Positions 42,001-64,000 of a DNA stretch of 64,000 nt are shown piece by piece. This DNA is from Candidatus Omnitrophota bacterium (GTDB lineage Bacteria > Omnitrophota > Gorgyraeia > Duberdicusellales > 4484-171): NCBI GenBank assembly GCA_021735655.1, contig JAIPGM010000001.1:64001-128000 (forward strand), read 5' to 3'. Numbering within the stretch: the stretch's first letter is position 1; the number at the start of each line of letters is the position of its first letter. The translations under genes and the position numbers were made by a program. Below the pieces are notes generated by a model. That model had not been told where the DNA came from and searched no databases. It worked only from the letters and a program-made list of their open reading frames with translations.

Positions 42001-45000
42001 AGATTAAAACGTAACCAAGCATTACCTTACCCGGCAACTATGCCAATAACTAATAAATTAGATCGTTCGCTTACTGAAAGTGAAAAAGAAAAAGTTATTT
42101 TAGCTTTTGGCGGAAGCGATGCCTTGGCAACTAATGGTATAGAGTTGAATGATCAAAATCTAGTAATGAGTCCGGCTCTTTCAGCTCCAGCTGAAGTAAG
42201 AGGCGGAGTTCTATATATAAATCCTAATACTTTAAGAGGTCCACCAGAACAGCTAAGAGTGATATTTGAAGGCCATGAATTAGCTCATTTTTTAGGAATG
42301 GATGAAATTCAAGCCAGACAATATACCATCGACTATCTTTTAGCGAATGGTTTACTTGAGAGCCACATTGCTTTCTTAGAGAATAATTCTATTGGTCTTG
42401 TAGCTGATCAGGAATGGTTAGAGGCTTTGAGCCAGAAATCAGTTTCTTTGGATAACGGAATTGAGCTTAAAGTTTATAAGTATAGGCCAGGAGTAAAAGT
42501 TGCTGTTGCTCAGATAGATCCGTCAATTTTACAGCCGCATATTTTAGTTTCCAGTGAGTTGGAAGGTAAGTTGCATTCGGTTGATCGTCGCTCTAACTAT
42601 GTATTGTATTATGATCATGAGACTGGCGAGCGTCTAGATAGCTTTCCTGAATCACGCCTAAAAGTATCTACGGTTACTAGTTTAATTGAAAGATTCCAGG
42701 ATCTTCATCCAGATTCACGAATAGAGATTATTACTGGTAACGAAAACCTTTTCTATAACAAGCCGATAGTTACAGTTATAGCCAATAAAGCTTACCATGC
42801 TGTCGGCGTTGACATAGAGAATCGTAATTATCCTATGCTTGTAATTTGGGCTGACGGTGCAGTAACTATCGAGGAAAGTGTTAGTTTCGAGTTTACTGAT
42901 TTTGATCAAAATGAAGTCAGAGTGTTGATTAATGGGAAAGAAGAAGATATACGCTATGCTACGGTTATCCAGTTAGTTTTAAATAAACAAGGTGTTGTTA
43001 ATCCGGGATCCCAGTTATATTTCTTTGATGATATCAAACATTTATTTGCGATGCCACGATTCAGCTCAGATGACTTTCCAGGAACTTTACCCAAGGGTTT
43101 GATGAGCGGAGCCATATTTTTTATGGCTGATCAACTTCTATCTGAAAATGCCCAGCGTGTAATCGACTATTACGATTCACAAAATCCAAAAACTGTTCAG
43201 GATTTTAATTTAACAAGCACCGTTTTTAGCAGAAGTGCCGATGGCCAAGATCGGGTAAGATTAATCAATATACCAGCAGAGTTATTAGAAGCTAGGTTGT
43301 TTGAAGCCGGATACTTACCTGATGACTATTCTATTGATCAAAGAAGAGGTGTAATTACTATAAAGCTTAGAGAAAATGTTTATCCTTTTCATATTATTGG
43401 AGTTACAAGTGATGGATTGGTGAAGGAGATAGTAGTTAATGGTAAATCTGGTAAGGTTGGTGTCACTGTAAGAGAAGCTGCCACTATTGCTCAAAAAGAG
43501 GGATTAATTAAGGCCGGAATAGTGGATCAAGGGATGACCGTTCGTTTAGATGTGGGTGATTTACGTTTTGGTAATGTTATAGTGGATAAACCTGGGCCTG
43601 AGAGGGCTAGTTCTTTAATCGTTTATACCCATATGCCTCTTGATAATGGTAAACAAAATAGACAATCGCCTCCCAGCGATGATAGATTAGGAGGAAGGGC
43701 TAGCCATAACGTGGCTGTGGCTGGTCCTGCTTCTAAGCCTTTGGATAATGGTCGACCAGGAAAGACCGAATGGAGCGATTTAATGAATCGCGTTGATCGG
43801 GTAAATGGCCTTAGGCAAGATGCACGAATAGCCGTAGTGCTTTATATAGTAGGAGTTGATCAAGAAATCGATGCCGGAACAAGAACAGCTCCTTTAACTG
43901 CCGGAGAACTACTGGTTAATGTTAATGGCGTAGGCCAGATAACTTCACGAAGAATTTTCCGAATAGTCGGTGAATTAAATCTTGCCGGAGTTACTTTAAC
44001 TCCGCTTGATAATGGAAGAGATAATCAATCCTCCCTCAGCGTTTCAGGGACCGACTTAAATCAATTATCGGGTGGATCAAGAACGCGGGCCTTAGAAGGC
44101 TTAAGTAGCTTCTACATAAAAACTAATTCAGTACCGGAGGGTATTCAAGAATTGTTTGATAGTCCTTCCGGATTATTAATAACCGTATCTGATTCTGATG
44201 GTGTGGTTGGCTATGCTTGGATTGATGTCCCAGCTGATGAGGATCAAGTACCAGCCAGGGTAGTCGTTAGTTTAAGTGACCGTCAATCTTTGGCAGTAGC
44301 TGAAAAGCTTAACCATGCAGTAATAAAAACCTTTATCGAAAGAAGTATCCTAAGTGGTAGTAAATTCCTCTTATCAACTCCTAGTGGAGAAAACCTTAAC
44401 TTCGCTCAATGGTTAAATCAACAATCACAATTCATCGCTGGTTTAGCCCAAGCCGGAATAGTTGTTGCTGACATTCAAACTAGTTTTTTAATTGAAGAAG
44501 GTAAACTAATGACTGTGACAGTAGCATCAAGACATCAAGATAAAACCAGAGCAAATAGAAAACCTTTAAATAACGGAAAACAAAATAGACAATCGCCTCC
44601 CAGCGATATAGATGGATCCCTGTTAAGGGATCAGGTAAGAGGAAGGGCTAGTCATGACGTGGCCGTGACTGGTCCTGCTTCTAAACCTTTGGATAATGGT
44701 AAGGATGTCGAAAGAGCAGAACATGTATTAGAACAAATAGGGACTGCTTTGGAGGGAGTTAAGGAATTAGTAAGTGCTCATTCTATTATTGTTGGCTTAT
44801 TAGTTGCCACGGTGCTAGTAGCGGTTAGCATTGGTTTATTCTTAGCCATCTGGCGCATATTCTTTTCAGTAAGTTGGTGGTTGCGACGATTGGAGAAGGT
44901 AGAGGCTAAGATGCAGATTCATGAGTTTTTTGTTCGTTTAGATCGGGATAAAGCTATAAAGCTTGTACAAAATATTTTAGCCAACTTCAGGGCAGAGCTT

Positions 45001-48000
45001 AAAAAAATTGATAAAAAAATAAATAAAGTGCACAATCGTAAAGAGCGTCTTCCCGAACTGGTTTCCGAGTCTACTTTTGTAGAGGATTTTGCTTATCAGT
45101 CTGATGTAAATGGGGTTACAATTATCGAAGGCCACATGGAACAAATATTAGTTCCTAATCCTAAACGTGAAGATTTAGATTCCAGGATAAAGGGATTAAG
45201 GGAAAGGGAAGAACTCATAACTAAACAAATATCTAAATTGGAAGGTATGTTGACTTCTTGGGAAGAAGCAGCATTAAGGTTAAGATTAGACCAATTGCAA
45301 AAAGAGTTAACCTCAACCCTAACTACTACTCTTGTATATGACTTAGATAGTGAATTAGTTTGGTGTGGAGACTTCGACTATAAATATGGTCAAGAAATTG
45401 GTGATTGGGTTCACTCAAAAATGAAAAGGGTAGTGAATCCAAGGTATTTGCAGCTTGAACAGGAGATAGCAGAAGTAGCTACTAGGTTGGATCGATTATT
45501 AGATGATAGTGCAAGCAGGGAACAAAGAAGACCCACCCCTCTCGACAACGGCACAGAACCTAGCGTGTCTTCTTATCCTCATCCCAGAGCAATACTTTGG
45601 GATTTAGATGGCACCTTAGTCAATACCATGCCACAGGTGTTAGAGAGTTTCGGAAAGGTAATATATTGGATCAGGACGGCCAGTTCGATTGAACCACAAC
45701 AGTCACAATCCCAAATAGCTCAAGATTATTTCGAGCATAAGCCTTGGAAGGCCTTAACTGATCATTTAGTTGATGTTATAGCTCAAGCTCAACAGGATCA
45801 TGTTTCTCAGGCTCAGCTAGCTCAGGTCGCACAAGAGCTAGGCCAACGCTATCAAGCTCCAGCAATGAATCAGGCTGATGAATTAGTTTTTAGTTTTGCT
45901 AAGATTTACGAGGCGGTATTATTAGATGAGGTTGAACATAATCCGCCAGCCTTATTTCCAGGAGCTTTTGCATTAATACATAACGCTAATCAACAGGGAG
46001 TATTACTTTATATTGCTACGGGTACACCGCAAAGGGTAGCTGAAGCTATAGCTATAAACTTACGCCTTGATAATTATTTTAGACGTATATATGGTGTACC
46101 AGTTGATAGTCCCTATCCTTTTGTTAATGGAAAGGCAGATATTTTAGTACAAATAGAGACTGAGCTAGAAATTTCCAGCAGTCAGATTGCTATTGTCGGT
46201 GATTCGGCAGGTGATGTTGCAGCAGCAAGACATCCGTCTCTACCGGAAGGATCTAAGTTTGTTTCAGTCGGTATTGCCAGCAGCCCTGAGAAACGTCAAG
46301 AGTTAAAAGAGGCTGGGGCTGATTTCATTGTTCCGGATTTAGAGTTTACTGGAGGCCAGATAGTTAAGCTATGGTTTCCGGCGGTTCCAGTTGTTCCAAA
46401 TTTACCGCAACGTAACGATAGTTTACCTTTTCAGTTTGTTTTTATGACGGTAACTAAATCAAGCCAAGCTCAAGATTTACAGGTTGAGCCTATTGAATTA
46501 AGGCCATTTTCAAGTCGGATCATCGGGTCGGTACTTGAAGGTGATTATACCGGAGCTCCGGCAGAACTTTCAGCTCGTCAAGTAGACTTTAACCGGCCGT
46601 TAGCCGATCTTTTTCCGATCGTAAGAGCCGCTATCGAGACTAATGATGCTGCTGAATTCTTTTATCTAGTAGAAGGTATCGTAGCTTCTGAAGTTCTTAA
46701 TCCGGCTGAAAAGCGCGAAGCATTCCTTACAATTTCTGCCTGGAGTAAATTTATGCCTAATACAATCAAGGGCGAAGGTTACTGTTCTTATTCTTTTGAA
46801 TGGTTTGCTAACGCTGCCTTAGAGCATCAGCATAGCAATCAAGGTGATCAAGAGTTAAGAATCGGATCTTTGGGCTCAGGCGATGGTTTAGCGATTTATC
46901 AGAATAGAACCTTAATGAGAATACAAGGAGTAACTCCTAAAATTACCCAGTTTGAAATTGATCCGAGAAGTATAGATCGATCTAAGGTTCTTAACCCCGA
47001 TGATGATTATGTTCAATGCGATCTTTCAAAGCTAGATCCTGAGGTACGTAAAAGATATCAGGGCCAATTTGATGTAATTTACCTTAATAATGTTTTACAT
47101 GAACTTTTTGCCTTCTGCGGTGAAGAAGGCGTCAGAGAAACTTTACGATTGGCTAATGAGTTTTTAAAGCCAAACGGAAGAATAGTCTTTCGAGATGGAT
47201 TGTATCCGCACAACGGAAACACCTATGTTCGGGTTGCGGTATCGGAACAGTATGAAAAAGCCTTCCTTTATTTTATCGCTAATTTTAACTGGCCAATACC
47301 TCTTTTTCTGGGATTTGATGAGGATGAGGTAGTGTTAAGATTCGGAGACTTAGCTAAAATTTTAACCAAAATTAAATTCATACAACAACGAGCCTGGGAT
47401 GATCGTTATCCGGTAGAAGACGAGATGCGGCAAGTTTATCCTTACGCTAGTGTTTATGATTATATGAAATATTTTCATGAAGCTGGATTCGTTAGCGAGT
47501 TTATCAGATTGGGTAATGAGCAGGAAAGCTTACAGCTGTGGAAAGAAGTTTTCCCCTTTAGACAGATGCTTTCACTTGAACAAATTGAAGATGCTGGAAT
47601 CTCACCATTGCAGGAGGCGAGCATTCCGGAAGCGAATTTTACTTCTAAGCCTTTGGATAATGGCAAAGATGTCTCAAGGGCAGAACATATTTTAGGACAA
47701 ATGGATAGATTTCCTCATTCAGCCAGCACTCAAAGCATAGTGTTACATTTTAACCCAGAAGCATTCGCTCAAAGTTTTAGCCCTACAAGCTTTGCTGAGA
47801 GAGTAGCTGAAGTAATTACTTTTAATCCAAAAACTACAGCCGGAAGAGAGTTAGGCCAAACTCTTGATAGAATAGTAAATCAATTCCAGAGTCAAAAATC
47901 AGTATTCGTTCCTTTAATTATTAAATCAGGCCTAGATAGCCCAGAATCATTTGGTTATAAGTCTATAGCAGATTTCTTAAGAAGTAATTTTAATCACAAT

Positions 48001-51000
48001 ACTCCGGCTTTACAGTTTATCGTTATAACTGATAGCGTCAGTGACTATCAAGGATTTCTAGATTCTGGTAGTCAATTCGTTTGGGAATTAGTAGCAGTTA
48101 ATAAATTCGATTTCACGCAGAACACCCCCCTCGACAACGGCTATCAAAACCCGGCTGATTTAGCTGCCCGAGCTCGCGAGCTTGGTTTGGAAAATCTAGC
48201 TTTAAATATTGAACAAAATGTAGTTACTACCCAAAAAGACTTAACCGTAGTAGCTGATATGTTTGCTATCGGCCAAAGCCATATCTTTGTTGGTTGGGAT
48301 CAACCAGGGATACATGATAATCAGAAGCTTCAGGTGTTGGGTCAGATCCGTCGTCGTAGTAAGCAATACCCAGGAAACCTAAAAGCCTTGGCTGATAACT
48401 CAAGAAAACTACTTGAAGGTTATTATGCTGGTAAAGGAAGATTCGATGACTACGAAGTAGGCACTCCAGAGACAACTGAAATATCAAGTCTAGTAACTAA
48501 AGAAGGAGAATTAATCCCACAAGCGGTAGCTGCTTATCTAGCTCTAGAAGCTGAAGGTTTAAGCTTAGCTAATCAGGTAGTTTGGGCTGAACCTGCCGGT
48601 GGTAGAGGTGAACGTCTCAGCAAAGAACAACCAATACCTTATCGAGGCATTAAACCAGCTCTTCTTATTGCTTTAATCAGTCAAAACTCTCAATTTGCCA
48701 GCTTCCAGACTCGTCAGATTATGGGTTGGCAGAGATTAGCCAATCAATCTCAAGGAGGGCAATTAGACCTAATTAATTCAATCATGAGTTCAGAAGATAA
48801 CCATGAAGATCTACGTCGTCTTTATGAACAACATAATTACTTTGGCGCTAAACCCGATTCAGTTAACCTACATCCACAACCATTAGTCTTTGCTGTAAAC
48901 ACCTACGAAGGTCATTTTGCGGTTGAAGACGATGCTTATCCTTATCGTTTAGTTGAAAAAGCTCATGGCCATGGTGATATCCATATGGTTTTTCATCAAC
49001 AAGAGGTTGCTAAACATGCCCTCGATCGGGGAAGAAAATATATCGTCTTCTATCAAGATACTAACTTACCGATATTCAGAGCTCTTCTACCTACTTTAGC
49101 CATAACTGAAAGAGAAGGTTATGTTTTAAGCTTTATTGCTTCACCGCGTCACCCTGGTTCAGCAGTCGGAGCTTTAGCTAAATTAACGCATAAGCAAACT
49201 GGCGATGAAACCGTAATGAACGTTGAATATATGCTTTTAGGTGATATGGATGTAGCCGCCAAAGGTAGTGAATTTACTCCATTCCCGGGTAACTTAAACG
49301 GTCTAGTCTTAGCTCTTGAGCCTTATCATCAAGCTCTTGAAGAAGCTCATGGCTTAGTACCAGAATTAATCAATCCGAAAGACCCTGAGCGTGATCTAGA
49401 AGCTTTAAAAGTAATCACCTTGCCTGATGGCTCAACAGCTCATAAACTTAAATCAGAAGCTCGAGCTGAAAATAATATGCAGGATATTGCTGAGATTATG
49501 GGTGATAAAGGTCCGGTAAGAGTAATCCAATTTGAAGATGGAACCTGGATCTTCTCAGCTGCCAAAAATAGCCAAGAATTAGGTAGGCAAGCTGTAGCTA
49601 AAGGTATTCCTTCTGAGACCATGGCTTCAGCTGAAGCTGACTTCTATCGTAATAATCGAATTGCTCTTGCAGTTGCCGGTTTACAAGTAAATGTTAATGG
49701 CCACCAAACTCAATCTCAAGGCGTACCCTACCAGGACGGAGCCAAGATCTATCTTGATCCGTTTATGTATCCGACTCTGGCCTCAGTAGTCGAAGCCTTC
49801 CGTAACGGTGGTTCACTCAGCGAAGAATCAACTTTGGTCGTTGAAGGTGAGGGACGAGTAAACTTTAACCACCTAGAACTAAACGGAACTTTAACTATCC
49901 ATGCTGGTGAAGGAGTAACTATACTCGTAGACGGGTCTTTTGAGACTGTTGGTACCTGGCGCTTTAGAAATTTAAGCCTTGAGGAACTAAGTAACCCAGC
50001 TATCGGAGATAACGAACTGATCAGAGGTTATCAGTTAATCAGAGATGGTGGCTTAAGATACAATGTAACCGAACCAGGAAGTTATACCTTAACTCAAGAT
50101 GGTTTAACTAAGAATCAAAGTCCTTTGGATAATGGTAAACAAACTTTAGACAATCAACGGACGTTCAGATCTAATAGAGCATGTATAACACCGACAATTA
50201 TCATTGCGGTGGCAGTGGCTTTATCATTTTTAGTTGGAGTAGAAAGATTTTTTACTTACTTTGCAATAGGAATATCCGCCCTAGCTGTGATTTTTAGTCT
50301 TTACTATTCAATTATTGAATTAATTTCTTTTATGAACAATCAGTCTTTTGATAGTAGAAGGCAAGGAGATAGGCAGGATGACCCTAGACGTGAAGAGCTC
50401 AAACGAAGATTAGAACAATCAGATACTGAGAATGATCGAAAAAGACCGTTAGATAACGGTAGAGAGAAGACCATCGTAGATTTATCCGTAAATTTAAAAC
50501 CCGGCCGTTATCATTACCCGGCCTACGCACCAACTGCTGATCAAGACGAACGTGAACCAGACGATGAAGAACGTGGAAGAATTATCGCACTTTTTGGCGG
50601 AAGAAATGTATTTGATCAAGCAGATTTGATTGTAAGAATTGCTCCGAGATTAGAATGGGTTGCTGAGGTTGACATTCTAAGAGAACAACCCAAGAAGTAT
50701 TTATTAATTAATCCTAATGTTATTCGGGGGCCACCGCAGTATGATTCACAACTTAAAATAATTTTTGAGCAGCATGAAGCATATCATTTAGATGGTGATG
50801 ATGAGAATGTCGCTACAAATAAAACTATTGAGTATTTAGTTTCAACTCCAACCGCAGTTAACCAACCAAGATTATTAATTAGCCATCTTCGTTTCCTTGA
50901 AAATAATTCTTTAGGCATAAGGCCGAAGCGAACATGGCGCAATCGCCTCGTTCGACGCATTGATGTGCAAGATTTACCAAGCACAAGACAGAGAACCGAT

Positions 51001-57000: not shown

Positions 57001-60000
57001 AGTAATCGTCAGCGTTTAGAAATACTTTCTCAAGATAAGGGAGAAATTGGTGCAGTAGCTCAAATTTTTATTCAGAGCATTAGTGCGCCTTTAGATAATG
57101 GAAAGAAACTTGACCCTGAGACCGAACTTAGAAGAATCGCTCAAGAGTTAGATGATTTAGGCTTGGGCCAAGCTGATGTCAGTGACAGTATTGATAGAGT
57201 AAGGGTTGCTTTAGGGCAAGGTTGGTATATACCGGAAAATAGGCCGCATATTGAAATTCTAGGCGATGAGCAGGGGAGGCTTTTACGTGCCTTAGATGAA
57301 ACTCATCTGCATCAAGAGCTGCCGGTAGTCGGAGCCGTAGATACAATAGTTGCAAAGTTGTGTGGTTTTTGTTTTCGTTCGGCTGACGTAGTAGTTTTAT
57401 CGCCCAGAGGAAGGAGAGGTTTCTTTATTCGTCGGGCAATTAAACCATATGAGGGTTATCTTACTTTGGTTGGCGGCGGGGTCCAGAGCGGTAGTTATGA
57501 AACAACCGCAAGAATGGAGATAAGAGAAGAGTTGATTTTAAGCAGATTACCAACTAATCCAATACAGATTATTAGTTATTATATTGCCGTAAAGCACATA
57601 TCTTATCTTAAAGGTGCTTTCTTATTATATATTTTAACTGATGATGAATTAGGCCAAGCTAGGGAATCCAGTCGCCGGGTTAATTCAGCTAAGGTAAATA
57701 AGAGCCGAGGAGAATTTATTGCTTGGTTAGCTCAACAGCGCGATCAGGAAGATGGTACTGGCGAGGCTTTTGGAATTTATGAGATTGATCTTGAAACAGT
57801 ATTTGATCGTCATCTACCGAATCCTGAAGTAGCTGGCGAAATTGGCCTAAGAATTCCTGAAACTTACGTTGGTGGTGAAGTTGAAGAAGAGTTTGCCGCC
57901 TATACCCCGGATATATTACAGTTATTTATGCAAGATCCAGCAAGGATAGCCAGAGCTAAAGAGGAATCCTTGAAACTCATCCGAGGACCTTTAGATAATG
58001 GAAAAACCCAGCAAGAAAGGAAACGTATTTTAGCTAGAGCTCGGTCAATCAGAAATACCAACCACGATATTGGTAATCATCTAAATGGTTTGCTAGGCTG
58101 TTTGAAAGAATCCAAAGAAATTGAAGAAGCTTATGCGATTTTTGGAAGATTTTCCGCAGACATTGCTGGTTTAAGAAAGTATCGCGAAGGTGGCGAGGCT
58201 GTTACCGATCAAGTTCTTGATGAAATAGCTCAGGCTTGTGATCATTGTGAAGCATTATTGGAAGAGTTACGTGATAAACTTCTTGAATTTGAATTTATCC
58301 GGACTATGGGTATTGACGATTTGGGTGAATGTTTTAGTCATATGGATCTAGAAATAAGAGGGTGGTTAGTCCAGGCAACCAAAGATGCCTATGATGTAGT
58401 TTTAATGTTGTTACATGACGAGATAGCCATTTTTAGTGCAGTTGAGGCAATAACTTTTATAACTCGAAGAGAGGCTAGCGAAGAAGAACTTGAGGTTCCC
58501 GAGATAAGGGTCAATCCTGAAGGTAGTCGAGTTATAGTATCGATAAACAGTCGTTACTTTTTAGGAATTTTTATGAATATCATCAGGAATTCTTGCACAG
58601 TTTGCAAGGGAATGTCTGGTCCGTTTGCTTCGATTGAAATTGATGAATCAGGAGAAGAATTTAAAGTTGTGGTTCGCGATAACGGACCGGGCATGAATGA
58701 TGCTCAGGTGCATCAATACAATCTTCAAGCGGTCGGTGATCTAACGGCTGTTACCGGAGTAATTTCTTCAAAGCCAGCCAAGGTACATGCTGAATCAAGT
58801 GGCTACGGCCGAGGCCTAAAAGAAGTTATTGCTGATATTGTTTTGCTTGGTGGGCGTACTTTTGTTGAGCGGTTATCAGCCGGAGGCATGCAAACCGTAG
58901 TAATTTTACCGAAACGACAAATAAAGAAACCTTTAGATAATGGCAAAAAATCTTTAAAATCTCGCCTAGCTGAAGCCGATACAGTAATTATTCCTACGCT
59001 GGTTGGTTTAACTGAGGGTCGAATTACTATGATAGTAGGTGATAATTTTGTGTCTTCTTACCAAACAGTTTTAGAGTTTTTAAATAGTGAAAAAACTAAC
59101 ATAACCGCTCTAAAGACAATATCAGGAGTTTTAAGTGAATTTTTCTTCGACGGTCATCCTAAGGCGGTAATGGTAGGTGAAGCTGATCTAGAGGCGGTGG
59201 GTATAGTTTTACCTGAGAGTGGAATAATTGATCCATCCAAAGATAATGTAGACATAGATGATTTAAGACAAAAGATCCTTGAGCTGCGTGATGTCATTGC
59301 CGGGTTTCCTTTAAGTCAAGTTGAAGAGTTTGAACAACATAAGTTTGATACCTTGGCTGACAATAAAAAACAAAAAATAGACGAAGATTTAACCGTATAT
59401 GCTAATACTCATATCTTTGACCTTAGATTAAGGGCAAAAAATGAAAGTGAAGTTGTGGTAAGAACTTTTAAGAATTCTCCGGTTGTTTCAGATCAAGTAG
59501 AGATTTTGGGAGTTGGCCCGGAAACTATCCAAACATGGTCAAGAATAATAGAAGCTTCAGAATTAATTGCTCTTTTTGGCCAGTTCCCTCAAGAATTAAC
59601 TCCAGCCTTAGAGGATAAAGTTATAGTGAAAGTTGCTGTTCCGCTTGATAACGGCCGGAATAGTTCAGCTGATACAACTAACCAGCTATTAACCCAACTT
59701 GAGCAAATGGCTCGCGGTCAGATTCCTGACGCTCAAGCCAGTAAAATAATTAAACAACTTTTAGTTTTGGGTACCGAGCGTTCGGATGTCCAAAGAGCTT
59801 TATTACTTTACAGTCGCCTGAGAGAGAAGCCACTCGATGGTTTATTTGATAATTATCATATAAATGGTGTGCCGGTAAGATTAGCAAGAGATCAAGAAGT
59901 CGTTTATATGACTAGAACCGGAAAAACTTTTAAACAGGTTTTTGGTGGTAAAAATATTATGGTTGTCGAAGTCCATCCGGATGACGCTATGCTTAATTTT

Positions 60001-63000
60001 GGTGATCTTGCCTTTGCTTTAAAAATGTATGGCGATAGTAATACTATTTTTGCTATGGCCATACCTGATCCAGCCGGAGTTTCTGATTATCAAGTAGATT
60101 TTATCAGAGTCCTTTACCTGATTAGTGAGTTTCTTGCGTTCTCAAAATCTGGGGATTTCGTAACCAAAATTGCAGAAAACCCTTTTATGAATACGAGTTC
60201 AAATGTATTAAAGTCTTGGATTCGGAGCGCTGAAGCTAAACTTGGGTCTGATTGCATGGCTCAAGGTGAATATGTAGATTTAGAGATAAACTTACCGATT
60301 GATCAAGCAGCTCGTGATGAATCTGGCCGATTGTTATCATTTGAGACTATATTCCAGGAACCAACTGATGAAGATCAAGAAAAAGTAGATAATTTAGTTA
60401 AGCAGCATTCCGATAGAGATATCTATATAGTTCCATCTCCGTTTTCGAATCATCCGCATCATCGAGCAATAGCCCGGATATTTTTATCAGCTATTTATCA
60501 ATTTAATCCGAATGCCCAGATATTTCTTTGGGATGATGATTTAAGTTTTAGACAGCATCGAATGAGAGCAAACACATTCTATTTCTATAGTCAATTAGAA
60601 CAGGCTCATAAGGAGAAATGGATTGAAAAAATTTATGATTCTCAAATTCTAAGAAGAGGTAAGGGTTTTTATGCCCAGCGAGCCGAACAAATAGCTTTAG
60701 CTGCGGCTGATGCTGGATTTAAAGAGATGATATTTGAGCGTGGCGATGTAGAGGCTTTCCTGGTTATTTTGGCCCATGAGCTTTTTTACGCTGAAAGATT
60801 ATTAAAGGTGAACATTGTTGAACGGCCAGCAGGTAGGCCTCTCGACAACGGTCGTCAATCAGATAAGGTTCAAGAAATAAGCTTTAGTGATAGAGTAGCG
60901 CTCAGACTTTTAAGCTTCTTGCATTTAATTAGAATGCCTACTTGGATTGTTTGGCATCTTACGCCAATTCGTTTTCGGGGTGGAATATTAGTTAGCGGCG
61001 GTGATTGTGCTGGTCTTAACCCAGTTGCCGGATATCTTTCGCGTTATCTTTGGCAAGATGGCCATATGCTAGCCGGGGTTAAAAAAGGCTTAGATGGCTT
61101 GATTAAAGCTGACCCAACTTCTGAGATTGTTCCAATAACTAGGGGAATGGCTAAGATTATGCCTTATGCTCCGAGTTTTGAATTTGCTTCAACCCGCAGG
61201 AATTTAAAAGAGGGAGAAGCTGAGACCGCCGTAGCCTTAGATAATATCCGTAAGAATTTTGGATTTTTAGTAGTTATTGGCGGCAATGATCATCTTTATG
61301 AAGCTAAAAAATTAGGTGAATTATTGGAGAAGGCCGGGTTAAAAGTTATTGTAGTTGGCGTGCCTAAAACAATTGATGCTGACACTTTATACACTAAACC
61401 CTTAGGAATTGAGTCAGCTGCCCAAGCGGTGAACGAATATGTTTATCGGGCAGCAGCTTTACCGGGGTCAGGCGAAGTAGTAATTATTGAAGCTATGGGT
61501 CGGGATTGCGGTTATTTAGCAGCTCGGGCCGGAGATAGAAGAGATGAAGCGATCGCCTTACTTGGTGCCGAGTTAGCCGAAAAAGCCGAAAAAGCCAAGC
61601 CAACTATGGAGACTTATGTTCCCGAGCATCCTAAAACTGTAGCTGAAATCCGCCGCCGGGCTAGAGAAAAAATGGCTAAAGTCGGAGCAATAACTATTAT
61701 TCTTTCTGAAGGTTTTAGAATTAACCAAACAGATGATCCGGACTATGGACCATTGCTAGAGGCTAATCCAGTATTAGCTGAAATCCTTAGAGGGCTTAAG
61801 CCTGACACACAAGGAAATATTGTTATTCCACAAGGTATTGCTGCTGAATTTGTCGCAGCTATTTTAGCCGAATATAATCCGACAATAGAAGTATTAGGTT
61901 TTACACCGCGCGGGGCTATCCCGGTTGATCAGGAAAGAGAGCTTGCTTCCGGTTTTGCCCGTCAAGCTAGAAAAGCTATAGTTGAAAGAATCAGTGGCAG
62001 GGCTGTTGCCTGTTGTGATGATATTAATCATCCGGCTGATTTAGGCGTTATTGACCTTGTGCCGATAACTCGGGTTTGCGGTAAAGATGCTAAAGGAAGA
62101 TCCATCAGTAAAGATGTAGATCAAATTATGAGTTTAACTGATCAGAAAGCAGCCGGAGTGATAATTTCCGATAATCAAGAAATTATGCCGGAAGAACCAT
62201 CAGCTGAGACTATTCGGAATAAAGATCCGCCGACTACCGTTAGCGCAGTTGCTGCAACTGCAATTTCAGCCTGGGCACATCGTCGGCCTTCAATTTTTGT
62301 TATTCGCGGGCAGGAAGCTGATGAAACAGTTAATCGATTAGCAGATCTTTTAGCTGCATCAACCAATTTAGGGGTTATCTATGTACGTCAAAGAACTGAA
62401 AATTCATATCTTGTTCTTTCGCGAAATACGTCTTTATCCTTAGGGGAGGTTCTTTCTAGCGCTCACCAGATAAAAGCAGCTGTTGGCCATCTCAATGTTG
62501 TTGTTTCACCATATTTTCAAATCAGAAAGAATGATCCAGTCATAGTTCAGTTAAGCCAAGTCAGAGAAAGGCTAACTGCTGAATTATCTGCCTTAGGTGA
62601 AGCTAAGGACAATCAAGCTAAGCGAGAAGGTATAATCAAGGCTCTTGCGCCTTATCGAGAGTTAGCCTTACGTTTAGCTAATGGCGATATTTCTGATTCA
62701 GCCTACTACGAATTTAATCCAGCCTTAAATGATCTTGGTCAGGTAGTTAAATTGATACTTTCCTTAGCTGTTCCTCAGGTCGAGAATCATACAGGGCCAT
62801 TGTCCGGCATGCGGCTGACTTCTTTAGGCCGGGCTTTAGATAGAGAAGAGAGAATCTTAACTTATAAACCGCTTGACAATGGCAAATCAAAAGAAGTTAT
62901 GACAGTTTCACACTTAGCTTATCCGACAAAGGCAGCTCTTATTCTTGAATTTGGTTTTTATCATGAAATAGAGCTTACTGCGGGGTACTTTTGCCTAGAG

Positions 63001-64000
63001 AATGAAGGTTTAGAAACAACTGTCGGTTTTAGAAGATGGTCTGAGCAACTAGAAGACTACTTAGAACAACCAAAACGTGGTCAGCAAGGAAATTTAGTCG
63101 CGATAATATTTGATGTTCCAATTGGATGGATTACAAATGGTGAGCGGATAGTATGGCATCAAGATGTAGGTTCGACTTTTTTAAGTTTGTCATCGGAAAC
63201 AAAAGTGGAAGCATTACCGCAGGAATTTTTAGATAGATTGGCCGCCGAAGATGTTGAGTGGTGGGGCAAGCAAGGTTTAGAAATGAATCTGGCCGATTTT
63301 TTTGCTTTGCATTATCGCAGGGGCACCTTAGGCCATGTGCCAGCTGAAAGTCTAAATCTTGAACAAACCATACAGCGAAATGTAGCACATTATGATGAAA
63401 GTTTTCTTGAAACATTAGTTGGCCAAAAGTTAACAGCGATGAGCCAATTGGCACCTCTCGATAATGGCATCAGAAAGTCTGGCCCTCGTTCGCATATCGG
63501 AACTTCAGGGAAAGTGACGAAAGTTCAACCAGTTGCCAAAGTTGGTGATCGTGATGCTGATCCTGAAGAACTAAAGAAAGAAACCAAAACCAAAAAAAGT
63601 GAGCCAAAAGCTATTGATTTTGGTCCAGCGGTAATTGTTGAGCTTTCTCAAGAAGCGCAAAGGTTGTTGGCTGAATCGAAAGATGGCCCAGACAATCCTG
63701 ACGGAAAATCTCAAGCCCCACTTGATAATGGCGTTAATGGTCTTGAGGTGATCAGCCAGGAAGAAGTGTTTTATAAAAATATTCACGAACATTTATCTCA
63801 ACGATCAGTGCCAGCTGATCAGATAGATTTTATTATTAAGGCAATGCGCTTAAATGCGCGCCATAATTTTGTTTCGCAATTAAGTAGACCGGCAACCTAT
63901 AATTCAAATTATCCGATATTTATCGGTAATTGCATGATGTCTCAAGGTACTGGTGTTGCCTATCAAGCCGCGCTGTTAAAACTTGAATATGGACAGTATG
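1..64000 (+). CDS. Single giant ORF, partial at both ends (more than 21,333 codons inside the window). Modular 'polyprotein-like' megaprotein.
   Basis: Frame 1 translates without stops in every line I spot-checked, including 1-600, 3001, 7201, 8821-9300, 10561, 17281-17460, 36001, 47461 and 63901-64000. All 36 PLDNG-type motifs (4243 to 63718) fall in the same frame (start position = 1 mod 3). The ORF track contains no frame-1 ORF and only ORFs of 198 aa or shorter elsewhere. The translated sequence shows recognisable enzyme motifs throughout. Confidence 0.85.
8947..9063 (+). other. Internal signal-peptide-like segment straight after PLDNG (RAKRLASRALSIITALAVLGSANVVQA|AEA). Similar segments sit at 11212-11330 and 21484-21600.
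   Basis: Translation shows a basic n-region, a hydrophobic h-region of about 17 aa and an AxA-type site directly downstream of the motif at 8932. Confidence 0.5.
12121..12465 (+). other. Thioredoxin-fold domain with the active site WCGPC (12187-12201).
   Basis: Translation ...[26 protein letters not shown]...IDIDDNPEIFNKFKV... carries the canonical thioredoxin CxxC motif and matching surroundings. Confidence 0.75.
15121..15624 (+). repeat. In-frame near-perfect tandem repeat array of 36-nt units (AAEAKKVADAEK) and 51-nt units (LAAEKAAEAKKVADAEK), about 10 clean copies plus degenerate flanks reaching about 15700.
   Basis: The units tile exactly: 15190-15240 (51), 15241-15291 (51), 15292-15327 (36), 15328-15363 (36), 15364-15414 (51), 15415-15450 (36), 15451-15486 (36), 15487-15537 (51), 15538-15573 (36), 15574-15624 (51). 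Copies differ by only 0-2 nt. Confidence 0.9.
16590..17790 (+). other. Long coiled-coil-like region rich in Glu, Lys, Ala and Gln, interrupted by a Cys/Arg-rich insert at 17284-17440.
   Basis: Heptad-like charged and Ala-rich sequence, for example ELEKAEGELEALKKAKEELTGKTAETDEELKTKQAEIERLKENLKQRQ... Confidence 0.55.
17810..18130 (+). other. Cluster of transmembrane helices (FYENHPFWFFFLLLTPGYLFGIWAAI...VVIALIAVGLSLALA...).
   Basis: Several hydrophobic stretches of 18-22 aa flanked by basic residues. Confidence 0.5.
19060..19760 (+). other. ATP-grasp-like domain, first copy (VVKIADGSQGVGIAMF resembles the RimK/GshB-type motif xLKPxDGSGGRGV).
   Basis: Motif at about 19420-19470 with surroundings typical of an ATP-grasp ligase. 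Confidence 0.45.
20520..21340 (+). other. ATP-grasp-like domain, second and more degenerate copy (HKAATAYILRQAGVSMPKT...AIVKPANRSRSEGVEAI).
   Basis: N-terminal ligase-like motif plus a xVKPxxGSxGxGV-like stretch at about 20760-20800. Confidence 0.35.
21850..22536 (+). other. Archaemetzincin-like (peptidase M54-type) zinc metalloprotease module. HELGHLFGINH lies at 22375-22407, with the Cys cluster running to about 22500.
   Basis: HELGHLFGINHECGCKTCIMHQADSTEEVARTKQFCKSC fits the pattern HExxHxxG-x4-C-x4-CxM-x15-CxxC. Confidence 0.6.
22537..22653 (+). repeat. Linker cassette PLDNGKQTRQSSPSDRLEVDGASSSVAASPTSSKPLDNG. A partial copy lies at about 21700-21840, and related copies at 43636-43752 and 44563-44700.
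   Basis: Nucleotide strings shared between copies include caatcg(c/t)ctcccagcgat and gctagccctacttcttct. Each copy has PLDNG at both ends. Confidence 0.8.
23530..24450 (+). other. Polytopic membrane module, with further helices out to about 25250.
   Basis: Many consecutive hydrophobic helices (LGSLIAGLVAALPVVGLVAGALALVVVLPPAI..., LVWITGFGSLFNVFVPALVVLVAVFYLW...). Confidence 0.5.
27540..28300 (+). other. Candidate GH-A clan (GH5-like) TIM-barrel glycoside hydrolase.
   Basis: IANEINYYD (an NE-x acid/base-like motif) at about 27658, and VIISEWGE (a nucleophile-like Glu) at about 28030, spaced roughly as in GH5 enzymes. Confidence 0.3.
31500..33560 (+). repeat. Eight tandem protein domains of about 85-100 aa each. 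Consensus ...(V/I)VAANDxxVxILIDxxAP...T(L/N)...(R/K)YGYK(D/E)LxDDSL(Y/W)LFD...
   Basis: Unit starts near 31578, 31883, 32190, 32440, 32697, 32948, 33205 and 33430. The last four are also clearly similar to each other at the nucleotide level. Confidence 0.7.
37790..38900 (+). other. Polytopic membrane module, with additional helices at 36960-37100.
   Basis: Repeated hydrophobic stretches of about 20 aa (IFAISFFVFLAKYLPLAKIVAFLF..., LAIMAIVIVIVITV...). Confidence 0.45.
38554..38739 (+). repeat. In-frame tandem duplication, 2 x 93 nt (KLVAY(I/V)RKLNAVRKSDTG(K/S)VMATVWSDI(K/R)SL).
   Basis: Copy 1 is 38554-38646 and copy 2 is 38647-38739. They differ at about 5 positions. Confidence 0.85.
39900..41990 (+). 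other. GT48-family (FKS1 / callose-synthase-like) beta-1,3-glucan synthase catalytic core (40180-40600), followed by a C-terminal multi-TM region (40590-41980).
   Basis: IVGIPEHIFTASFGNEGKLLAFSDSTFANMVQRVIAMGGTRMHYGHPDSFRKRFAKRMGWTASSSKLNEDIFAGYRAIRYGKRIKFIEYRRVGKAREVKF...FGRGSGEQ matches the conserved FKS blocks I recall (...GGKLHYGHPD...LNEDIYAG...R(G)G.IKH.EY.Q.GKGRD(V/L)G...G.GEQ). Confidence 0.65.
42085..42440 (+). other. Novel HExxH domain, paralog A (HELAH at 42274-42288), ending near the SLDNG variant at 42448.
   Basis: ILAFGGSDALATNGIELNDQNLVMSPALSAPAEVRGGVLYINPNTLRGPPEQLRVIFEGHELAHFLGMDE...AFLENNSIGL is paralogous to 50560-50930. Confidence 0.5.
45583..46380 (+). other. HAD-superfamily phosphatase domain (motif I DLDGT at 45601-45615; motif IV GDSAGD at about 46195-46215).
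   Basis: ILWDLDGTLVNT ... IVGDSAGDVAAAR, spaced as expected for a HAD hydrolase. Confidence 0.7.
46790..47300 (+). other. Class I SAM-dependent methyltransferase fold.
   Basis: LRIGSLGSGDGLAIYQ (motif I, at about 46870-46895), followed by an acidic post-I loop and FDVIYLNNVLHELF (a motif II/III-like region). Confidence 0.5.
48480..49600 (+). other. UAP1/USP-type nucleotide-sugar (UDP-sugar) pyrophosphorylase domain.
   Basis: WAEPAGGRGERLS (compare LAGGQGTRLG) at about 48590-48625, and AHGHGDIH (a GHGD motif) at about 48961-48985. Confidence 0.5.
50560..50930 (+). other. Novel HExxH domain, paralog B (HEAYH at 50773-50787).
   Basis: IIALFGGRNVFDQ...LLINPNVIRGPPQYDSQLKIIFEQHEAYHLDGDDE...RFLENNSLGI is paralogous to 42085-42440. 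Confidence 0.5.
52650..53960 (+). other. PEP-utilizing enzyme domains (PPDK / PEP-synthase-like): a phosphohistidine 'mobile' domain followed by a PEP/pyruvate-binding TIM barrel.
   Basis: ETGVLHYGIAARAEGFPVLA (compare GGxTSHAAIxARExGxP) at about 52700-52750, and FGSVGSNDLISF (compare S(I/F)G(T/S)NDL) at about 53590-53620. Confidence 0.5.
54760..55100 (+). other. Pol-beta superfamily nucleotidyltransferase head domain, of the CCA-adding / poly(A) polymerase type.
   Basis: LYGGAVRRKVYDLGRFVSDYDLMA (a GGAVRD...DxD motif) at 54850-54940. Confidence 0.45.
57380..57640 (+). other. Nudix-hydrolase-like domain with a degenerate Nudix box.
   Basis: GGGVQSGSYETTARMEIREEL (57473-57535), compared with the typical GGGVEPGETPEEALRRELKEEL, sits in a context shaped like a Nudix fold. 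Confidence 0.4.
58040..58925 (+). other. Histidine kinase module: a HisKA-like H-box followed by a GHKL/HATPase_c domain.
   Basis: IRNTNHDIGNHLNGLLG (H-box) at about 58050-58100. VVRDNGPGMNDA (G1, DxGxG) at about 58665-58710. SGYGRGL (G2) at about 58801-58825. Confidence 0.6.
59950..60500 (+). other. LmbE / PIG-L-like (GlcNAc de-N-acetylase family) domain candidate.
   Basis: MVVEVHPDDAMLNFGD (an HPDD(E)-type motif) at 59961-60010. Confidence 0.35.
60940..62100 (+). other. Phosphofructokinase (PFK-A family, possibly PPi-dependent) domain.
   Basis: ILVSGGDCAGLNPV (about 60985-61025), VVIGGNDHL (about 61275-61300), VPKTIDAD (about 61360-61383), EAMGRDCGYLA (about 61493-61520). Confidence 0.65.

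Follow-up and report, generated by a model that had tools for sequence, protein, structure and literature searches.

Results

One open reading frame with a recurrent pentapeptide

The window analysed here is a stretch of 64,000 nucleotides (nt) from a Candidatus Omnitrophota bacterium (assembly GCA_021735655.1, contig JAIPGM010000001.1, positions 64,001 to 128,000 of the forward strand), and it lies within a single giant open reading frame (ORF) whose encoded enzymes are punctuated by the invariant pentapeptide PLDNG. Not one stop interrupts the 21,333 codons of frame +1, whereas each of the other five frames has between 952 and 2,749 stops in the same 64 kb. This frame is open past both ends, and the window thus represents the interior of a single giant gene; because the ORF exceeds both ends, no complete ORF of 200 amino acids (aa) or more is found. 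GC content (about 0.40) and a positive GC skew are both uniform across the window.

The gene belongs to the published class of Omnitrophota giant multi-enzyme proteins. It is a single ORF of 21,333 codons, where the class begins at 10,000 codons; at least 12 distinct enzyme families are encoded along the chain, with little internal paralogy and no dominating Pfam family; and a Kyte-Doolittle scan finds 57 hydrophobic segments in addition to three Sec-type signal peptides. Pfam searches of the window gave no SecA-DEAD, C39 or S8 domain; the N- and C-terminal parts of the gene lie beyond it.

A reading of the letters and ORF translations that preceded this analysis (the original prediction) had described the 3′ 20 kb as a series of unrelated, normally free-standing enzymes fused head-to-tail between PLDNG sites. 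Its core was borne out: most modules are unrelated enzymes that normally stand alone, mostly complete where this can be judged, and PLDNG stands strictly between domains of one uninterrupted frame. When the chain was compared with itself, the modules proved unrelated except for three signal-peptide leaders, four spacer cassettes, one HExxH pair and one repeat region. The claim that such a fusion is new to cellular genomes has to be withdrawn, since giant ORFs of Omnitrophota have been published (West-Roberts et al. 2023; Nielsen & Lui 2026). The reading frame and its motifs are as follows.

1..63999, + strand: internal piece of the giant ORF, frame +1, 21,333 codons, without start or stop in the window
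8932..63732, + strand: 30 PLDNG sites of 15 nt each, invariant pentapeptide, extended consensus [KRT]-PLDNG-[KR]
PLDNG sites 1-15, + strand, starting at: 8932, 9892, 11197, 21469, 22537, 22639, 23461, 23497, 25984, 43636, 43738, 44002, 44686, 45538, 47650
PLDNG sites 16-30, + strand, starting at: 48127, 50122, 50446, 54046, 54640, 55624, 56461, 57088, 57988, 58930, 59641, 60838, 62869, 63454, 63718
One-mismatch variants, + strand: 4243 (PLNNG), 7906 (ALDNG), 10939 (ALDNG), 21823 (PLDNN), 30673 (PLDSG), 42445 (SLDNG), 44563 (PLNNG)

PLDNG is conserved as a peptide and lies outside domains

PLDNG occurs 30 times in frame +1, compared with 0.015 occurrences expected from composition, and is by far the most enriched 5-mer; the 15 positions listed in the original prediction are exact. 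Consecutive sites are 12 to 5,884 aa apart, and pairs separated by 12 or 34 aa are present. While the amino acids are invariant, the 30 copies use four Pro, five Leu, two Asp, two Asn and three Gly codons. The next residue is K or R at 23 of the 30 sites, and K, R or T is favoured at the preceding one; other flanking positions are unconserved. This combination of synonymous codon variation, invariant residues and unconserved flanks indicates that selection acts on the peptide. A motif at the level of DNA was rejected, as all five codons vary synonymously.

The codons are nevertheless not used at random. The rare Leu codon CTC, which makes up 3% of the Leu codons of the ORF, is found in 7 of the 30 motifs (P = 2e-5), with TTA under-used and GAC, AAC and GGC also somewhat enriched. 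The CTC excess might signal a translational pause, or be left over from the origin of the motif. Variants with one mismatch number seven, compared with 1.25 expected, and five of them are followed by K or R, as are the true sites; they may be decaying or alternative sites inside very large modules.

None of the 30 sites falls inside the envelope of a recognised domain. For the 21 sites of the 3′ 20 kb, where recognised domains cover 31% of residues, the probability of this outcome is 3.8e-4. The distance from the end of a domain to the next PLDNG can be short, i.e., 4 residues for HATPase_c, 9 for the domain associated with phosphofructokinase (PFK), 10 for the M54 peptidase and 19 for a NAGPA-like domain. 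Within 15 residues on either side of the motif K, R and S are enriched and F, W and Y are depleted, as is the case for exposed linkers. A Shine-Dalgarno sequence with a start codon follows the motif twice, where 1.5 such cases are expected. Independent translation of the modules is thus unsupported by any excess of start signals, and was rejected.

Modules of the 3′ 20 kb

Between nt 43636 and the end of the window the following modules are delimited by PLDNG.

43636..43737, + strand: 34-aa spacer cassette KQNRQSPPSDDRLGGRASHNVAVAGPASK between two PLDNG
43738..45537, + strand: three modules of 88, 228 and 284 aa, no family match
45538..47649, + strand: 704-aa module with a HAD phosphatase (nt 45586-46230) and an S-adenosylmethionine (SAM) methyltransferase (nt 46870-47250)
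47650..48126, + strand: 159-aa unannotated module, first 20 residues paralogous to the start of the nt 44686 module
48127..50121, + strand: 665-aa full-length UDP-sugar pyrophosphorylase (USP), E = 6e-73 to PDB 9uml
50122..50445, + strand: 108-aa small membrane module, hydrophobic hairpin from 19 aa past PLDNG
50446..54045, + strand: 1,200-aa module with an HExxH domain and a domain like phosphoenolpyruvate (PEP)-utilising enzymes and enzyme I of the phosphotransferase system (PTS)
54046..54639, + strand: 198-aa unannotated module
54640..55623, + strand: 328-aa module, possible divergent nucleotidyltransferase, GGAVRR...DYD motif only
55624..56460, + strand: 279-aa unannotated module
56461..57087, + strand: 209-aa module, weak hints of a GHKL/RsbW-type ATPase
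57088..57987, + strand: 300-aa NUDIX-fold module, domain at nt 57376-57654, partly degenerate Nudix box
57988..58929, + strand: 314-aa minimal histidine kinase with H-box NHDIGN, DHp hairpin and HATPase_c (nt 58567-58917)
58930..59640, + strand: 237-aa unannotated module, weak DUF6911 match
59641..60837, + strand: 399-aa PIG-L/LmbE-like deacetylase module with HPDD and HPHH signatures, weak Pfam match
60838..62868, + strand: 677-aa module with PFK (nt 60982-61977) and an associated domain of about 380 aa (nt 61699-62841)
62869..63999, + strand: unannotated modules of 195, 88 and at least 94 aa, the last exceeding the window

Four of the assignments made from the letters were confirmed by profile or structure-library matches. 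The pair of a HAD phosphatase and a SAM methyltransferase placed at 45538-47650 is matched in Pfam at E = 1.5e-18 and E = 1.8e-6, respectively, with motif I of the former (DLDGT) 17 residues past PLDNG. The UAP/USP-type pyrophosphorylase placed at 48127-50122 is blank in Pfam; the solved enzyme 9uml, of 600 aa, is covered from residue 15 to 561 by residues 37-613 of the 665 in the module, and its closest homologues in the protein library, about 30% identical (maximum 31%), are mostly of free-standing size (561-598 aa). The HExxH domain followed by PEP-utilizing domains, placed at 50446-54046, consists of FEQHEAYHLDGDDE at nt 50515-50796 and of a PEP-utilising domain at nt 52792-53772 (PEP-utilizers_C, E = 3.8e-21; PTS_I_fam, E = 1e-21). 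The PFK placed at 60838-62869 (E = 1.2e-32) has GGD and PKTIDAD motifs, and PLDNG at both ends of its module.

Other assignments fared less well. For the Nudix-like domain placed at 57088-57988 support is moderate (21.5 bits against a Pfam cut-off of 21.1), as it is for the histidine kinase at 57988-58930, whose HATPase_c match of 25.4 bits lies below the cut-off of 26.4 while its H-box and G1 box are both present; the two calls are marginal but coherent. Moderate support was likewise obtained for the LmbE/PIG-L-like deacetylase at 59641-60838, in which a weak Pfam match (E = 1e-3) coincides with both the HPDD and the HPxH signature. The RsbW-like GHKL domain at 56461-57088 is reduced to weak hints (HATPase_c_2 at E = 0.085 over model positions 15-125 of 127; HATPase_c at E = 0.045) with no PDB sequence match. 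Of the CCA-type nucleotidyltransferase at 54640-55624 only the motif resemblance stood, as NCBIfam, relaxed Pfam and PDB sequence searches gave no support. Single-sequence AlphaFold2 models of this module and of the stretch from the RsbW-like module through the NUDIX module to the kinase were unusable (mean pLDDT 40 and 37).

The idea of one enzyme per inter-motif segment holds in part. Some segments contain two or more domains, and others are spacers or small membrane pieces of 12 to 108 residues; eight segments of the 3′ region are unannotated by NCBIfam, relaxed Pfam and PDB sequence searches. As to whether a segment has the length of a full family member, the USP aligns end to end with a free-standing enzyme, and most other modules are complete where this can be judged. 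Among the unmatched modules, that of 228 aa ends in a spacer cassette with the degenerate motif PLNNG (nt 44563), and that of 284 aa (nt 44686) has one transmembrane (TM) helix 33 aa past PLDNG and then a coiled-coil-like region.

Modules upstream of nt 43636

The upstream two-thirds of the window contain fewer PLDNG sites and several very long segments.

1..8931, + strand: 2,977 aa upstream of the first PLDNG, with a few hydrophobic helices and without a match in Pfam or to PDB sequences
8932..9891, + strand: 320-aa module, Sec signal peptide RAKRLASRALSIITALAVLGSANVVQA/AE at nt 8947-9027 directly behind PLDNG (here and below the slash marks the signal-peptidase site)
9892..11196, + strand: 435-aa membrane module, about four hydrophobic helices, HEAMH motif
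11197..21468, + strand: 3,424-aa multi-domain module with signal peptide, thioredoxin, tandem repeats and a weak ATP-grasp match
nt 11212-11292, + strand: Sec signal peptide ...TKTAFA/SG
nt 12115-12435, + strand: thioredoxin, Pfam E = 5.7e-16, PDB E = 3e-15
15142-15652, + strand: Ala/Glu/Lys tandem repeats, about 10 copies of a AEKAAEAKKVADAEK unit, nested periods of 18, 36, 51 and 123 nt
nt 21184-21330, + strand: ATP-grasp, one weak match only
21469..22536, + strand: 356-aa archaemetzincin (Peptidase_M54) module, PLDNG at both ends
nt 21484-21561, + strand: signal peptide of the M54 module, ...TNIASA/AE
22537..22638, + strand: 34-aa spacer cassette KQTRQSSPSDRLEVDGASSSVAASPTSSK between two PLDNG
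22639..25983, + strand: three modules (274, 12 and 829 aa) without family match, of which the third is a polytopic membrane segment
25984..43635, + strand: 5,884-aa multi-domain module with repeat region, GT48, HExxH domain and weak NAGPA-like domain
29902-34416, + strand: protein-level repeat region of about 1,500 residues, units of about 100 aa that are 25-45% identical; TRF array at 32467-33223
nt 39202-40695, + strand: GT48 1,3-beta-glucan synthase, polytopic membrane protein, Glucan_synthase E = 4.6e-56
nt 42028-42297, + strand: HExxH domain, paralogue of nt 50515-50796
nt 43354-43578, + strand: NAGPA-like domain, weak, ending 19 aa before the next PLDNG

For this region the original prediction had named a thioredoxin, an archaemetzincin-like protease and a GT48 glucan synthase, all three of which were recovered by profiles. 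It had also named two ATP-grasp domains, for which one weak match was obtained, and a GH5-like glycosidase, which received no support from Pfam or PDB sequence searches. NCBIfam, relaxed Pfam and PDB sequence searches of the unannotated modules and the large dark upstream regions revealed no further family and no additional protease. Both GT48 glucan synthase and UDP-sugar pyrophosphorylase are most familiar as eukaryotic families.

The M54 module is the only recognisable peptidase in the window. Its order is signal peptide, second TM helix, a spacer-cassette copy with PLDNN, and protease core. The core, HELGHLFGINHECGCKTCIM...CKSC from nt 22375, has the full HExxHxxGxxH and Cys4 signature and scores 35.3 bits against a cut-off of 24.4. 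Cys accounts for only 0.2% of the 21,333 residues of the chain, and six of these residues cluster at 22375-22510, in the Cys4 zinc site of this module. The Ala/Glu/Lys array is probably a coiled-coil or spacer; both the high AT skew at 12-18 kb and the long antisense open stretches are due to it.

Signal peptides, membrane helices and spacer cassettes behind the motif

At three PLDNG sites (aa 2978, 3733 and 7157) a canonical Sec signal peptide of 27, 27 and 26 residues, respectively, follows immediately. These leaders, RAKR...VQA/A, RSRR...AFA/S and SSHR...ASA/A, each comprise a basic n-region, an h-region and a c-region ending in VQA, AFA or ASA; those at nt 8932, 11197 and 21469 are paralogous to one another. 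A TM helix begins 19-33 aa downstream of four further sites. That signal peptides and TM helices stand right behind PLDNG indicates that the motif marks apparent protein N-termini. Leaders of this kind are absent from the nucleotide-dependent enzymes, i.e., PFK, USP, the PEP-utilising enzyme, HAD and the kinase.

A spacer cassette of about 34-50 aa is present in four copies (21700-21840, 22537-22656, 43636-43755 and 44560-44703), with the pattern K-Q-x-R-Q-S-P-P-S-D ... G-A-S-S/H-x-V-A-V/A ... S-K-PLDNG. Degenerate motifs occur in two of them, namely PLDNN at aa 7275 within the M54 module and PLNNG at aa 14855. The four copies have long identical nucleotide runs in common, such as CAATCGCCTCCCAGCGA, and these point to recent duplication or gene conversion.

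Related giant genes carry another delimiter, or none

The only named relative is a 2,359-aa protein from a Candidatus Omnitrophota metagenome-assembled genome (MAG) from Lac Pavin (L001, JAPLLN010000055.1, locus 1-22446), whose PFK module is 37-48% identical to that of the window; an alignment-based repeat of the search recovered only the same MAG. Its locus has three huge ORFs in a row, with PEP-utilizers_C, PFK, Pkinase, Response_reg, deaminase and PPDK_N domains. At 9960-10060 of this locus the first two ORFs (g1 and g2) overlap, and are split inside PFK relative to the other two sequences. The split is read as a frameshift, either real or due to a sequencing or assembly error, and the three called genes are probably one giant gene. 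The closest relative (L003, Ga0265297_10000019, a 714-kb metagenome contig, 2-21154) was the one locus returned by a scan of metagenomes. It is 51% identical over 678 aa, comprising PFK and its associated domain, and is open over all 7,051 codons fetched. A search of GTDB genomes with the PFK module gave no match, and neither did viral contigs, whether searched by the pattern PLDNG-34 codons-PLDNG or by domain. The PFK module is common to the window and both relatives; otherwise module content differs strongly.

In the three giant ORFs from Lac Pavin the tripeptide SSP takes the place of PLDNG. It occurs 30 times in about 7,450 residues, compared with 1.4 expected, and all copies lie outside Pfam domains, often close to their edges. 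The distance from a copy to the start of the next domain is 14 aa for Response_reg and 22 aa for PFK, and that from the end of a domain to a copy is 2 aa for PPDK_N and 15 aa for HEAT. SSP also occurs in paired mini-cassettes (SSPATFGAVVGAVSSPA) that are reminiscent of the PLDNG-34 aa-PLDNG cassettes of the window.

The two linkers that flank PFK can be compared directly. On the N-terminal side the window has RPAGR-PLDNG-RQS, the Lac Pavin ORFs KKAGS-SPL-RTLS and the metagenome contig KQPAGE-KDELA-AS; on the C-terminal side the corresponding sequences are ILTYK-PLDNG-KSK, SVAS-SPL-RTVS and IKTD-PSVSG-KK. Because homologous linkers carry PLDNG, SSPL or neither depending on lineage, shared descent of the linkers is excluded as the source of the motif. 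And because each lineage with a motif has its own at both linkers, the pattern implies that selection has favoured a single recognition sequence throughout a lineage, as is the case where numerous sites evolve together with one factor that acts in trans.

Searching 1.84 billion representative proteins with a profile of the 30 sites gave a single match, an unrelated 2,846-aa protein (P0002) whose FN3-like repeats, over 20 in number, have TPLDNGT.YTFEVRAVN as their conserved strand motif. The pentapeptide alone is therefore not diagnostic. A tandem repeat-domain architecture of this kind was rejected for the window, where the flanks of the sites are unrelated and the spacing varies from 12 to 5,884 aa.

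Discussion

Evidence for and against a processed chain

To account for these findings we propose that the gene encodes a bacterial polyprotein cut at lineage-specific protease sites. PLDNG, in exposed inter-domain linkers, would be both the recognition and the cleavage site of one site-specific endopeptidase, and its cuts would yield at least 31 products, from 12 to 5,884 residues long, each of which would fold and be targeted by itself. Products with a Sec signal peptide or signal anchor would go to or across the membrane, while PFK, USP, the PEP-utilising enzyme, HAD and the kinase, which have no signal, would stay in the cytoplasm. The M54 archaemetzincin module, membrane-anchored, would itself be released by its flanking PLDNG sites; the actual protease may be encoded beyond the window, either in the same gene or at another place in the genome. 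Related lineages with SSP or with no delimiter are to be expected if the sites co-evolve with each lineage's own protease.

As to the scissile bond, one can conceive of a cut by an Asn-specific (legumain-like) or an Asp-specific (caspase-like) enzyme, or of one after Gly. Several features are those of polyproteins, namely unrelated proteins in one ORF and a conserved short motif at the junctions between folded domains; a bona fide metzincin protease module is also present in the chain. The PLDNG pairs 12 or 34 aa apart around spacers fit duplicated cleavage sites rather than domain caps. We regard cleavage at PLDNG as the best reading of the data. However, since it is inferred rather than demonstrated, as are the scissile bond and the responsible enzyme, our confidence in it is about 0.5.

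Other observations weigh against it as well. No protease of PLDNG specificity is known. Characterised archaemetzincins are aminopeptidase-like enzymes, not sequence-specific endopeptidases, and C39 and S8 peptidases, the candidates offered by the literature, were not detected in the window by Pfam. The inter-site segments of 3,424 and 5,884 aa are multi-domain, i.e., PLDNG does not separate every enzyme. In the 7,051 codons of the closest relative, which also acts as a negative control, no short peptide k-mer is enriched, and processing at such motifs is thus not required for the class. Among the 1.84 billion representative proteins there is no other PLDNG-punctuated one. Finally, the AlphaFold2 models, at pLDDT 40 and 37, provide no usable view of the linker context.

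What else might PLDNG be? The chain might remain uncut, as a giant membrane-anchored multi-enzyme protein in which the motif serves to dock a scaffold, chaperone or secretion factor, is the target of a modification, or simply forms a favoured Asx/beta-turn that insulates adjacent domains during co-translational folding. D-N-G residues are strong turn formers, the over-use of CTC in the motif (7/30 vs 3%) could mean pausing at domain boundaries, the closest relative needs no delimiter, and in both published surveys the giant proteins of the phylum are usually read as single membrane-anchored products. A generic turn or insulator would, however, need no five invariant residues at 30 sites, nor would it be exchanged for another invariant motif where a sister lineage has homologous linkers. 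Unless new N-termini arise, it is also hard to account for the site pairs at 12 and 34 aa and for the cleavable-looking signal peptides one residue past the motif. We consider an uncut chain possible, with perhaps a third of the weight in our judgement or slightly less. We are far more sceptical of the idea that the chain is separated without any protease, either by chemical cleavage at Asn-Gly via a succinimide or by a 2A-like stop-go skip of the ribosome. Asn-Gly is the most succinimide-prone dipeptide, Asn-dependent self-cleavage is known (e.g., at NPTH in FlhB/YscU and in capsid maturation), a very short invariant peptide with free flanks resembles the 2A core, and the window contains no recognisable protease of matching specificity. 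Yet known self-cleavage at Asn requires a folded catalytic context, whereas the flanks of PLDNG are unrelated; Asn-Gly usually deamidates rather than breaks the chain; no NPGP, D[VI]ExNPG or NPTH is present anywhere in frame; skipping at 2A is a property of eukaryotic ribosomes, and the ribosome here is bacterial; and the SSP motif from Lac Pavin lacks Asn.

Slightly less credible still, in our view, is that PLDNG and the cassettes are scars or handles of module shuffling at the DNA level, that is, recombination junctions with no role in the protein. This would agree with the identical nucleotide runs of the four cassettes and with the strong differences in module content between related giant ORFs, in which only the PFK module is common. 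Outside the cassettes, though, the motif is kept only at the amino-acid level. That there is no real giant gene at all, and that the window reflects faulty assembly or annotation, several separate genes in succession, or a repeat protein with PLDNG in the repeated domain, we take to be negligibly probable. The FN3-like protein, with TPLDNGTxYTF as an internal strand motif, lends the last of these its one argument. Against them stand an absence of stops where the other frames have about 1,000-2,700, the sharing of one frame by all homologous enzyme domains, equally long open frames in two independent relatives, the lack of an excess of start signals after PLDNG, and the mutually unrelated flanks of the 30 sites.

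Relation to published giant proteins

With up to 147,155 codons, the giant genes of Omnitrophota are among the strangest features of bacterial genomes. Giant ORFs are common in the phylum (Seymour et al. 2023). Among the commonest domains of its 'Archaeovorins' are HATPase_c, PPDK_N, NUDIX and HAD_2, and glycosyltransferases, methyltransferases, peptidases and glycolytic enzymes are found as well (West-Roberts et al. 2023, bioRxiv 10.1101/2023.11.21.568195). A second survey describes class-1 'multi-enzyme metabolic clusters' of up to 147,155 aa with 43 Pfams (Nielsen & Lui 2026, bioRxiv 10.64898/2026.06.07.730766). The first catalogue comprises 46 giant proteins, and the second 5,761 of at least 10,000 aa. 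The gene in the window resembles these in being a single ORF, of tens of thousands of codons, with many unrelated and highly divergent enzyme domains among TM helices; shared domains are HAD, methyltransferase, NUDIX, HATPase_c, PEP/pyruvate dikinase-type enzymes, glycolytic enzymes, glycosyltransferases and peptidases. It differs in its GT48 glucan synthase and USP, which are not among the domains highlighted for published giants, and in its delimiter, none having been reported for them; the SecA-DEAD and C39 domains that are typical of their full-length examples are not seen in the fragment in the window.

All three studies call the function and processing of the giant proteins unresolved (West-Roberts et al. 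2023; Nielsen & Lui 2026; Seymour et al. 2023). Post-translational cleavage had already been suspected, and its points were stated to be unknown, so that the proteins could not be split for structure prediction (West-Roberts et al. 2023, bioRxiv 10.1101/2023.11.21.568195). Neither preprint mentions a separator, linker or recurrent motif (West-Roberts et al. 2023; Nielsen & Lui 2026). The original prediction that conserved separators are new thus appears to stand, and a literature search for PLDNG returned chance matches only, with nothing added by further searches of the literature. To our knowledge, an invariant lineage-specific delimiter, PLDNG here, SSP in one relative and none in another, is unreported.

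Together with the signal peptides behind some copies and the other delimiter at the same linkers, PLDNG provides a concrete and testable processing map, and it can be used to cut giant sequences into units for folding and annotation. Topology predictions in both surveys place glycolytic and nucleotide-dependent enzymes outside the cell (West-Roberts et al. 2023; Nielsen & Lui 2026), and separate products with their own targeting signals would resolve this paradox of cytoplasmic-type enzymes. If the proposal is right, cleavage maps of giant proteins could be read directly from sequence; the giant genes would be the first large heterogeneous polyprotein system of a cellular organism, and new sequence-specific proteases could be obtained from it. 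We would go further only tentatively, and at somewhat less than even odds, to a broader model in which, in some Omnitrophota, much of the enzyme complement (cytoplasmic metabolism, signalling, envelope synthesis and secreted proteins) is made as a polyprotein in the manner of viruses, the giant ORF replacing the operon, with a lineage-specific delimiter code (PLDNG, SSP) that co-evolves with a dedicated protease and with a targeting signal for each product.

Relation to other multi-protein chains and cleavage signals

Viral polyproteins, such as those of picorna-, poty- and flaviviruses, likewise have unrelated proteins in series in one ORF, a short junction motif and a protease in the chain. 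Flaviviruses have a protease site immediately upstream of internal signal peptides, which signal peptidase then cuts, and the window mirrors this arrangement where PLDNG stands directly before a signal peptide that has an AxA site. The window differs in being cellular, in a length 10-100 times greater, in its metabolic and regulatory content, and in that its cleavage is a deduction. Closer to it in being cellular are the nuclear-encoded plastid polyproteins of Euglena and dinoflagellates and the multi-domain precursors of cyclotides, all of which are processed post-translationally at short, conserved linkers. In cyclotide precursors an asparaginyl endopeptidase cleaves at Asn-Gly, which matches the N-G of PLDNG. 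These, however, are eukaryotic repeats of the same or closely related proteins with other motifs, and no C13 peptidase was detected in the window. AROM, CAD and the fatty-acid and polyketide synthases also combine several enzymes in one polypeptide, but theirs belong to one pathway, their linkers have no repeated invariant motif, and they contain no internal signal peptides.

Short peptides that direct chain scission are known from double-glycine leaders with C39 peptidases, from sortase LPxTG signals and from 2A. With Leu at -4 and Gly at -1, PLDNG would fit a double-glycine leader, and C39 is common in Omnitrophota giants; this candidate was rejected because position -2 is an invariant Asn, no GG is found near the sites and no C39 match was obtained with Pfam. 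Hydrophobic residues at -7, -12 and -15 occur at 2, 8 and 6 of the 30 sites, at or below background, i.e., without the periodicity of such leaders. A sortase or exosortase signal was rejected as well: there is no LPxT[GA], PLDNG is internal and present 30 times, and basic residues followed by a helix are in the order of a signal peptide. 2A/StopGo and NPTH self-cleavage signals were rejected by the same in-frame search that is cited above.

Minor observations

A near-perfect duplication of 93 nt (two copies) is found at 38552-38739. The two small HExxH domains of the window, IFEGHELAHFLGMDE at 42028-42297 and IFEQHEAYHLDGDDE at 50515-50796, are paralogous and lack a family assignment. In the metagenome relative a similar element, AHERIHQ, precedes PFK, as does AHELFY, in which the His is lost, in the window. 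The HExxH element may thus be a recurring zincin-like unit of giant proteins.

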